Numbered from the stretch's first letter, positions 36,932 to 37,664 are shown. The stretch is DNA of 44,333 nt from a virus (IMGVR_UViG_2909246061_000002:1-44333), one strand, 5' to 3'. A program made the numbers and translations. Notes: generated from the letters alone by a model not told the origin.

Positions 36932-37171
36932 ATGAGGAAAATCGTTAATCGTTACTTAGCCGCTGCCGGTAGTGTTATGGACATTATGCCGACTACAGAT
37001 TACTGGCAATATGCTGCTTCTGGATCTGATTGTCGGGCAATAAGAAGTGATGTTAAAGTCATTGCAAGTGACATGAACAGAGTTATCAGGTATGAGTTCA
37101 AAACCCCGCAAGCAGGCGGCCGTTCTCAAAAAGCATCAGGAAAACAAAGCGTCGCAAAAAGCCGTTCCTGA
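36932..37171 (+). CDS. hypothetical small protein, 80 aa, overlapping the next gene
   Basis: ATG at 36932 with GGGAGGGG RBS downstream of a promoter-like AT-rich spacer; 3' 80 nt overlap the next gene in another frame. Confidence 0.4.
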   Translation: MRKIVNRYLAAAGSVMDIMPTTDYWQYAASGSDCRAIRSDVKVIASDMNRVIRYEFKTPQAGGRSQKASGKQSVAKSRS

Positions 37172-37664
37172 TTCGGATGGTATCGACGAAGATATTGATT
37201 CCTCGGAATATGATGAGTCTCAGGAAGTAGTGGAAAAGCTGTCTGCAGTTGCCAACCTTGATCCTGAGCTAAAATCGAAGTTAACACCTGAACTTCTTGA
37301 GAGAGTTTCTAAGAACCCGAAGGTTATTGCCATGTTTCAGCAGGAGTCTTTTCAGGGACCACTCCCACCTCCTGCTATGCTCTTACAATATAATCAAATA
37401 TTACCCGGCGGCGCTGAGAGAATTTTCAGGCTAACCGAAAAAGAGCAAGAGCATAGGCATAAGACGCAAAGTGATGCATTACTTGGTGCGGTTTCACGCG
37501 ACAAACGTGGGCAATGGATGGGATTTTGCATTGCAATGGTAGTGCTTATAATGGCTGCGTTTTTTGCTAATCGCGGTAACACTTGGTTCGCAGGTACTCT
37601 TGCTACTTTAGATCTCGTAGGATTAACTACAGTGTTTGTTTATGGTAGGAAGAAACCTAAATAA
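37092..37664 (+). CDS. DUF2335-like membrane protein
   Basis: 190 aa; charged N-terminal half, motif FQGPLPPPAMLLQYNQILPGGAERIFRLTEKEQEHRH, two C-terminal TM helices. Confidence 0.6.
   Translation: MSSKPRKQAAVLKKHQENKASQKAVPDSDGIDEDIDSSEYDESQEVVEKLSAVANLDPELKSKLTPELLERVSKNPKVIAMFQQESFQGPLPPPAMLLQYNQILPGGAERIFRLTEKEQEHRHKTQSDALLGAVSRDKRGQWMGFCIAMVVLIMAAFFANRGNTWFAGTLATLDLVGLTTVFVYGRKKPK

Follow-up and report, generated by a model that had tools for sequence, protein, structure and literature searches.

The 44,333-nt viral sequence IMGVR_UViG_2909246061_000002 (hereafter the window; positions are counted from its first nucleotide and all features are on the + strand) carries two genes that overlap by 80 nt in different frames. 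The first is a small open reading frame (ORF) of 79 aa at 36932..37171, with an ATG at 36932 and a TGA at 37169-37171. The second, at 37092..37664, is a DUF2335 gene of 190 aa (573 nt) whose ATG is inside the small ORF. A first-pass annotation had reported this out-of-frame overlap and the coordinates of both ORFs, which are exact on re-reading of the sequence. Both genes are real, and their overlap is conserved among relatives. We think it probable that they make two partner proteins from one mRNA, with translation of the DUF2335 gene coupled to that of the small gene and kept low. DUF2335 synthesis would be tied to translation of the small gene, and limited, because a start poor in Shine-Dalgarno (SD) sequence is embedded in the small ORF.

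With a start offset of 160 nt, the DUF2335 gene reads in frame +1 relative to the small ORF. From the 80 nt shared by the genes (37092..37171), the small-ORF frame yields the small-protein tail, and the +1 frame yields the N-terminus of DUF2335, which is basic and of low complexity (MSSKPRKQAAVLKKHQENKASQKAVP). Initiation signals of the two genes are asymmetric. A strong SD, GGGAGGGG at 36922..36929, precedes the small ORF and forms an anti-SD duplex of -10.7 kcal/mol, versus -2.4 kcal/mol for the pairing upstream of the ATG at 37092, which is preceded by GTTATCAGGT. The strong and weak ribosome-binding sites called in the first-pass annotation thus hold up when energies are calculated. Across 23 lineages, the mean SD energy is -7.9 kcal/mol for the small ORF and -3.25 kcal/mol for the DUF2335 start (Wilcoxon p=8e-4), and an SD of -5 kcal/mol or lower is present at the small ORF in 18 of 23 lineages but at the DUF2335 start in only 6 of 23. 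No terminator was found between the two co-directional genes; the sole terminator found is 3' of the DUF2335 gene. The genes are presumably co-transcribed.

The small ORF belongs to a large family with a conserved core. Alignment and an AlphaFold2 model define the core of the window protein as aa 1-54 (36932..37093), predicted to be helical, with two motifs: R.YL.A.GSVMDI.P..DY (motif 1) and RSD...I..D..R.I (motif 2). In an alignment of 25 diverse members, the corresponding motifs are M..R..L...GS.LDI.P...Y and SD...L..D...IG.DF..A; a core of ~55 residues is conserved and the tail varies in length and sequence. When scored against the test motifs GS[VI][LM]D[IL].P...Y and [SR]D...[IV]G.DF..A, motif 1 of the window protein is intact and motif 2 is degenerate (RSDVKVIASDMNRVI). 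Residues 1-52 match PHROG 26284 (E=2e-12), and the ORF matches our own hidden Markov model (HMM) of the small protein with E=4e-41 to 1.8e-22. An exhaustive profile search (E<=0.001) found 2,583 representatives when clustered at 50% identity, most of them 55-95 aa in length; no relatives of the family were found in Pfam, NCBIfam, or PDB.

Substitution patterns in the part of the core outside the overlap, estimated by the Nei-Gojobori method, point the same way. Between the window and its nearest diverged relative, L113, the proportions of nonsynonymous (pN) and synonymous (pS) differences are 0.20 and 0.72. Two other pairs give pN 0.055 and pS 0.32 (L063 versus L031) and pN 0.044 and pS 0.35 (L083 versus L096), so that pN/pS is about 0.1-0.3, which indicates that the core is under purifying selection. 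On these grounds the small ORF is a genuine gene, because it has a PHROG match, a conserved core, a pN far below pS, and a family of this size. It had earlier been suggested that the ORF might be purely regulatory; conservation of the peptide core across phyla and purifying selection speak against that option.

The tail of the small protein is unconstrained. Residues ~55-79 are not conserved in the 25-member alignment and have a predicted local distance difference test score (pLDDT) <50 in the AlphaFold2 model. The model has a moderate mean pLDDT of 61, with predicted helices at residues 2-17, 24-28, and 32-56, pLDDT of 75-85 at residues 31-50, and a tail predicted to be disordered at residues 60-79 (pLDDT <50). 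The last 26 codons had been noted to look like an out-of-frame reading of the downstream gene, and they are indeed an unconserved and disordered extension.

The gene pair shows some variation in and around the small ORF. Two loci (L060 and L061, about 1768-1963) have a small ORF interrupted by an apparent one-nucleotide indel next to an intact DUF2335 gene. The indel falls in an apparent A-run, deduced from translations in which KKT of an intact relative becomes KNQ; either DUF2335 can persist when its partner is broken, or the assemblies are in error. In Uetakevirus-type locus L075, compared with L069, the small ORF has diverged far beyond the adjacent DUF2335 gene (pS 0.59 versus 0.18), and in L005 versus L031 the first half of the small ORF is identical and the second half diverged. 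Both patterns suggest that recombination breakpoints fall at or within the pair. Protein P0088 (266 aa) has the small-protein domain at its C-terminus (aa 203-263), fused to a partner other than DUF2335; no Pfam match was found for its N-terminal ~200 residues, which look hydrophobic on visual inspection.

None of the annotations examined for this Escherichia coli version of the cassette includes the small gene. The four cassette-bearing E. coli RefSeq records inspected annotate the full 573-nt DUF2335 coding sequence and none annotates the small ORF, and the 15 E. coli matches to the cassette likewise list no feature for it. The 79-aa ORF alone has no scoring relative in a word-indexed search of a collection of 5.8 billion protein clusters, which suggests that it is essentially never called as a gene; relatives were detected with a profile of diverse members. 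Prodigal allows a same-strand overlap of at most 60 bp (PMC2848648). The overlap is 80 nt in the window and 74 nt in L113, whose annotation keeps the small ORF and shortens DUF2335 to a GTG 4 nt past the small-ORF stop, and both genes are called in homologues where the overlap is <=59 nt. A 60-bp limit of gene finders is therefore a plausible cause of the missing gene. The missing gene is a concrete example of a systematic annotation blind spot.

Absence from annotation and from the single-sequence search, together with the frameshifted small ORFs beside intact DUF2335 genes in L060 and L061, could be taken to mean that the small ORF is a decaying remnant, either nonfunctional or a regulatory leader peptide, and that the locus is a broken single gene. 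We consider this extremely unlikely, given purifying selection on the core, the size and deep conservation of the family, and the plausible technical cause of the missing annotation.

The downstream gene encodes a member of a recognized family. It matches PF10097 with 66.6 bits, compared with a cut-off of 25 (E=1.8e-18), and PHROG 3996 (E=1.2e-46). The Pfam DUF2335 domain spans aa 92-141 (37365..37514) and is preceded by a conserved GPLPPP motif at 37356. A hydropathy scan locates two hydrophobic helices (aa 142-160 and 165-184) that form a C-terminal hairpin (37515..37643), and the AlphaFold2 model of a fused homologue has a long helix followed by a second one, in a helical hairpin. DUF2335 is thus a predicted membrane protein with a C-terminal hydrophobic hairpin.

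The overlap is real only if the DUF2335 gene starts at 37092, and the start codon is conserved. Alternatively, the gene could start past the small-ORF stop, at a GTG at 37230 or an ATG at 37332, in which case the two genes would be merely adjacent and the overlap an illusion of annotation. Both in-frame starts exist and have somewhat better SD-like sequences (AGGA at a spacing of 4 and AAGG at a spacing of 8), the first ~45 residues of DUF2335 are of low complexity and poorly conserved, and some gene callers shorten DUF2335 so as to avoid the overlap. But L113, which is in the same prophage slot and has a small protein 54% identical to that of the window, keeps the ATG and the MSSKP N-terminus of the window DUF2335 and has GTT GTC in place of the GTG at 37230. 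Conservation between the window and L113 extends over residues 45-80, upstream of M81; therefore, the ATG at 37332 is too late to be the start. In 12 of the 67 clusters defined below, there is no ATG, GTG, or TTG from the small-ORF stop to the GPLPPP motif, and the DUF2335 start must therefore be inside the small ORF in those clusters. Moreover, an ATG occurs within a few codons of the opening of the DUF2335 frame in nearly all lineages, and five codons after it in the window. A start downstream of the small ORF is quite improbable.

Pairing of the two genes is widespread. Surveys with the small-ORF HMM covered 175 loci, and DUF2335 loci clustered at 70% identity formed 67 clusters; in 54 of the 67, a small ORF is upstream of, overlaps, or is fused to DUF2335. 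In 39 clusters the DUF2335 gene reads in frame +1 relative to the small ORF, most with overlaps of 11-95 nt; in 10 it reads in frame +2, mostly with a 4-nt ATGA overlap or a 2-nt gap. In three clusters the genes are in the same frame, with a stop and 6-9 nt between them, and in two they form a single fused ORF. The small ORF was not detected in the remaining 13. By tblastn, Klebsiella phage RAH1 has the small ORF immediately 5' of DUF2335, and Alteromonas phage P24 has a weak match in the same position. The HMM surveys also found the pair in Pseudomonas, Yersinia, Xenorhabdus, Uetakevirus phages, Acidobacteria, Dehalococcoidia, Deinococcales, Geobacteraceae, Elusimicrobia, Cardiobacterium, and the candidate-phylum lineage Peribacteria. 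Well-separated genes with independent ribosome-binding sites and no frame relationship, the pattern that would have spoken against the first-pass annotation, are not what most homologues have.

Fusions are a minority state. In Xenorhabdus, motif 1, a linker, and DUF2335 form one protein of 146-161 aa, found in at least 21 species clusters that are 62-95% identical, and the full small protein is fused to DUF2335 in IMG/VR loci L102 and L103 and in protein P0126. The single fused ORF that had been proposed as something to look for in homologous loci thus exists, in a minority of them. The further suggestion, that one ancestral gene was frameshifted to give the pair, finds no support in the sense of a recent lesion, as the two-ORF state is widespread and taxonomically deep. 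Judged by this distribution, the small protein and DUF2335 clearly belong together, and the overlap is the common form of packing, though not an obligatory one. We regard them as partners because of their recurrent pairing and the functional link given by the fusions. In X. nematophila (L178 and L179, 2194-2953), the fused gene comes immediately after a cI-like repressor and cro, a divergent pair, in an apparent decayed prophage, with a tail-fiber remnant, transposase genes (L179), and a TonB-dependent receptor gene as neighbors.

Fusions also raise the question of whether the overlap is recoded. A low-frequency +1 ribosomal frameshift, or RNA polymerase slippage in the A-rich overlap, could add a small protein-DUF2335 fusion like that in Xenorhabdus to the two separate products, in which case the activity of the membrane protein would be tuned by the proportion of free to tethered partner. 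Long overlaps are nearly all in the +1 frame, in-frame fusions occur in several independent lineages, and A-runs are frequent in the overlap (the window has two A5 runs, several lineages have A6, and Yersinia has A8). Two database proteins, P0040 and P0078 of Yersinia, look like one-nucleotide A-run variants that merge both frames, but may be sequencing errors. Other features of the overlap do not fit recoding. There is no conserved slippery motif (L031, L058, L089, and L109 lack any homopolymer of four or more), no match to Rfam at gathering score, and no stimulatory structure, with a folding z-score of 0.23 for the overlap region. The DUF2335 gene keeps its own ATG, unlike downstream ORFs that depend on frameshifting, and the frame relationship is not universal, being +2 in 10 clusters and in-frame with an intervening stop in 3. 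Bacterial transcriptional slippage has been cited at runs of 9 (PMC5009743), and the A5 runs in the window are well under that length. Recoding is therefore highly unlikely.

The Yersinia case is worth describing. Y. enterocolitica L176 has an A8 run right after the DUF2335 ATG (ATGGAAAAAAAATC, 1201-1215), within a 71-nt +1 overlap, and P0078 (Yersinia sp.) reads as an A7 variant in which the small ORF and DUF2335 are fused in frame; no contig was located for P0078. True polymorphism, a site prone to slippage, or an error in sequencing could each explain this variant.

These findings lead us to a mechanism in which ribosomes would load efficiently at the strong SD of the small gene. The first product would be a soluble, helical protein of ~55 residues followed by a disordered read-on tail. 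The DUF2335 ATG is ~3 codons past the end of the conserved core, and the small ORF reads on to the first in-frame stop, here 80 nt past that ATG. Being nearly SD-less and itself translated as part of the small ORF, the DUF2335 start would be rarely used and dependent on ribosome traffic. Terminating ribosomes may move back and re-initiate, as in the coat-lysis pair of phage fr, or initiation may occur de novo, infrequently, between passing ribosomes. The second product would be DUF2335, made up of an N-terminus that is basic and disordered, a conserved helical domain in the cytoplasm, and a C-terminal membrane anchor of two helices, and the small protein would be in excess over this membrane protein. 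The two proteins would work together, putatively in physical contact, and in a few lineages would do so as one polypeptide. We infer both the direction of coupling and its mechanism.

Among the options in the first-pass annotation, translational coupling fits best, with the pair conserved, the start poor in SD, and 12 clusters having a start embedded in the small ORF. Taken as a whole, its interpretation survives in part: coupling is plausible, and neither a regulatory upstream ORF nor a recent frameshift lesion is supported.

Several points nevertheless weigh against coupling. The 80-nt spacing between start and stop exceeds the longest spacing for re-initiation that we found documented in the literature, and coupling is known to fall steeply with positive distance. 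A route that depends on unfolding of RNA is without an obvious target because the overlap lacks significant structure (z=0.23, as above), and ribosome traffic over the DUF2335 start could repress initiation instead of promoting it. Several lineages pair both genes without overlap, so that overlap is not essential. In the model of the fused Xenorhabdus homologue there is no confident contact between the small-protein motif and DUF2335, and the N-terminal 47 residues have pLDDT <50 (AlphaFold2). A consensus scan of the leader upstream of the small ORF found no sigma-70 promoter.

The length of the overlap is another such point. Synonymous reshuffling of the DUF2335 N-terminus gave an overlap of at least 80 nt in 17% of cases (P=0.17), and the pooled value for 25 lineages is p=0.23. 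The overlap is no longer than chance gives and there is no detectable selection on its length. These shuffles gave no sign that avoidance of stop codons keeps the overlap long. Conservation of the arrangement across distant homologues is, by these comparisons, what goes beyond chance.

An overlap whose length reflects chance placement of the first stop could be a neutral by-product of compaction, with DUF2335 initiating independently of small-gene translation. Lineages with adjacent, nonoverlapping genes exist, some with a good SD (L105, GGAAGG), and the sequence just past the ATG is A-rich with no significant structure around it, which favors SD-independent initiation. On the other hand, DUF2335 starts are systematically poor in SD relative to those of their partners, and across phyla the start persistently falls inside or abuts the small ORF. 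A start covered by elongating ribosomes cannot be independent of them. We view a neutral overlap as unlikely and favor coupling.

The pair forms part of a discrete cassette in a prophage. The cassette is ~0.9 kb (36767-37670) and consists of a 165-nt leader, the two ORFs, and a downstream terminator region. Its GC content is 40-45%, compared with 50-57% in the flanks. It is located between a PHROG-3443 gene and the spike gene, among baseplate genes of a contractile-tail (myovirus-type) E. coli prophage. The prophage backbone is present in 259 of 5,426 complete E. coli genomes and the cassette in 15, all at least 99.6% identical. In E. coli DX6, the same prophage slot lacks the cassette and retains the same terminator. 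That intrinsic terminator (37680..37705, also delimited as 37680-37699; its stem of 8 bp has 5 GC pairs and is accompanied by a T-run) is resident, marks the end of the module, and precedes the spike gene. The low-GC leader (36767..36931) marks the start of the inserted module, an insertion absent from the DX6 slot. The block of small ORF and DUF2335 is a typical phage accessory cassette, or moron.

The insertion is between the PHROG-3443 gene stop and the resident terminator, with the junction near a shared 'aacctaaa' (L003, 1860-1930). A perfect 8-bp inverted repeat, TTTACCTT-A-AAGGTAAA, is at 36879-36895, 37 nt upstream of the small ORF start. The repeat folds into a hairpin of 7 bp and might act as an operator or as an RNA hairpin; its equivalent in L113 is not palindromic. 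Alignment of the leader to that of L113 shows patchy conservation and no clear -35/-10 pair, and the folding z-score of the leader (0.38) gives no evidence of structure.

Temperate phages carry the pair at accessory sites: it follows the antirepressor in RAH1 and Uetakevirus phage ZX5, follows cro in X. nematophila, and has baseplate genes on either side in the prophage of the window. From this context, we would guess that any biological role is a membrane function expressed by the prophage, such as superinfection exclusion. Neither protein has a PADLOC match at E<=1, and sequence searches of NCBIfam, Pfam, and PDB gave no functional lead for either protein and no defense or toxin-antitoxin component. 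We found no functional literature on DUF2335/PF10097. DUF2235 is the Tle1 phospholipase family. Papers on effectors of the type VI secretion system list a 'DUF2335 phospholipase' toxin domain (bioRxiv 10.1101/2023.07.16.549128; PMC6267618), which is probably a slip for DUF2235 and not a functional annotation of PF10097.

Besides exposing an annotation blind spot, the pair is useful in two ways. A small-protein family of ~2,600 clusters that is a regular partner of DUF2335 provides a handle on the function of DUF2335. In addition, the range of pair spacing, from -95 to +16 nt, along with same-frame adjacency and fusion, is a natural series for coupling across negative spacing. What is modestly new is an unrecognized small-protein family paired with DUF2335 and a gene absent from current annotation. 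The mechanism class is not new, because a long out-of-frame overlap with a weakly initiating downstream gene is a known, if uncommon, phage device.

Among known systems, the G/GT tail-assembly chaperone genes, which use a programmed frameshift, are similar in being two overlapping ORFs in a phage tail region for which a fusion is conceivable and fused relatives occur. They differ in that here the downstream ORF has a conserved ATG, there is no conserved slippery heptamer or stimulator, a shift would be +1 instead of -1, and the frame relationship is not universal. The two sequence modules of the window pair also occur in the single-polypeptide DUF2335 proteins of Xenorhabdus (such as P0049 and P0063) and in P0126, in which motif 1 (GSILDIMPxNDY) is followed by DUF2335 and a membrane hairpin. 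Unlike the window pair, the fusions of Xenorhabdus have neither motif 2 nor the long basic linker and are encoded by one ORF with no overlap. The fused gene of X. nematophila adjoins cI and cro, whereas the window pair is in a tail module.

Overlapping genes like these are an ordinary arrangement, here of unusual length. Among prokaryotic overlaps, >80% are <30 bp. Overlapping gene pairs are enriched for subunits of complexes (PMC10666635). In the ATGA and TGATG pairs that use termination-reinitiation (Huber et al. 2019, 2023), the genes are likewise co-directional with an SD-poor downstream start, partners in heteromeric complexes are enriched, and stoichiometry is set by translation (PMC10666635). 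Some DUF2335 pairs of other phyla use exactly the 4-nt form, but the window and most of its relatives overlap by 23-95 nt instead of 1-4 nt.

As precedent for coupling across a negative spacing of tens of nucleotides, we found only the coat-lysis pairs of phages MS2 and fr. There, too, a small membrane protein is downstream, with its start tens of nucleotides before the stop of a highly translated gene. The lysis frame of MS2 and fr is +1 relative to coat. The lysis gene is poor at initiating alone and is coupled to ribosomes that finish the upstream frame, and in phage fr coupling works at -38 and -50 nt (PMC12548453). The window pair differs in belonging to a cargo cassette of a DNA prophage, in having a dedicated small partner instead of a structural protein as its upstream gene, in its spacing of -80 nt, in having no structure that hides the start, and in that its coupling is a proposal. 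DUF2335 has no detected sequence similarity to any characterized protein family, lysis proteins included. At -80 nt, the window pair is outside the -4/-1 class of coupled genes and falls with the rare class of long overlaps that is typified by the coat-lysis pair of phage fr (-38 nt).

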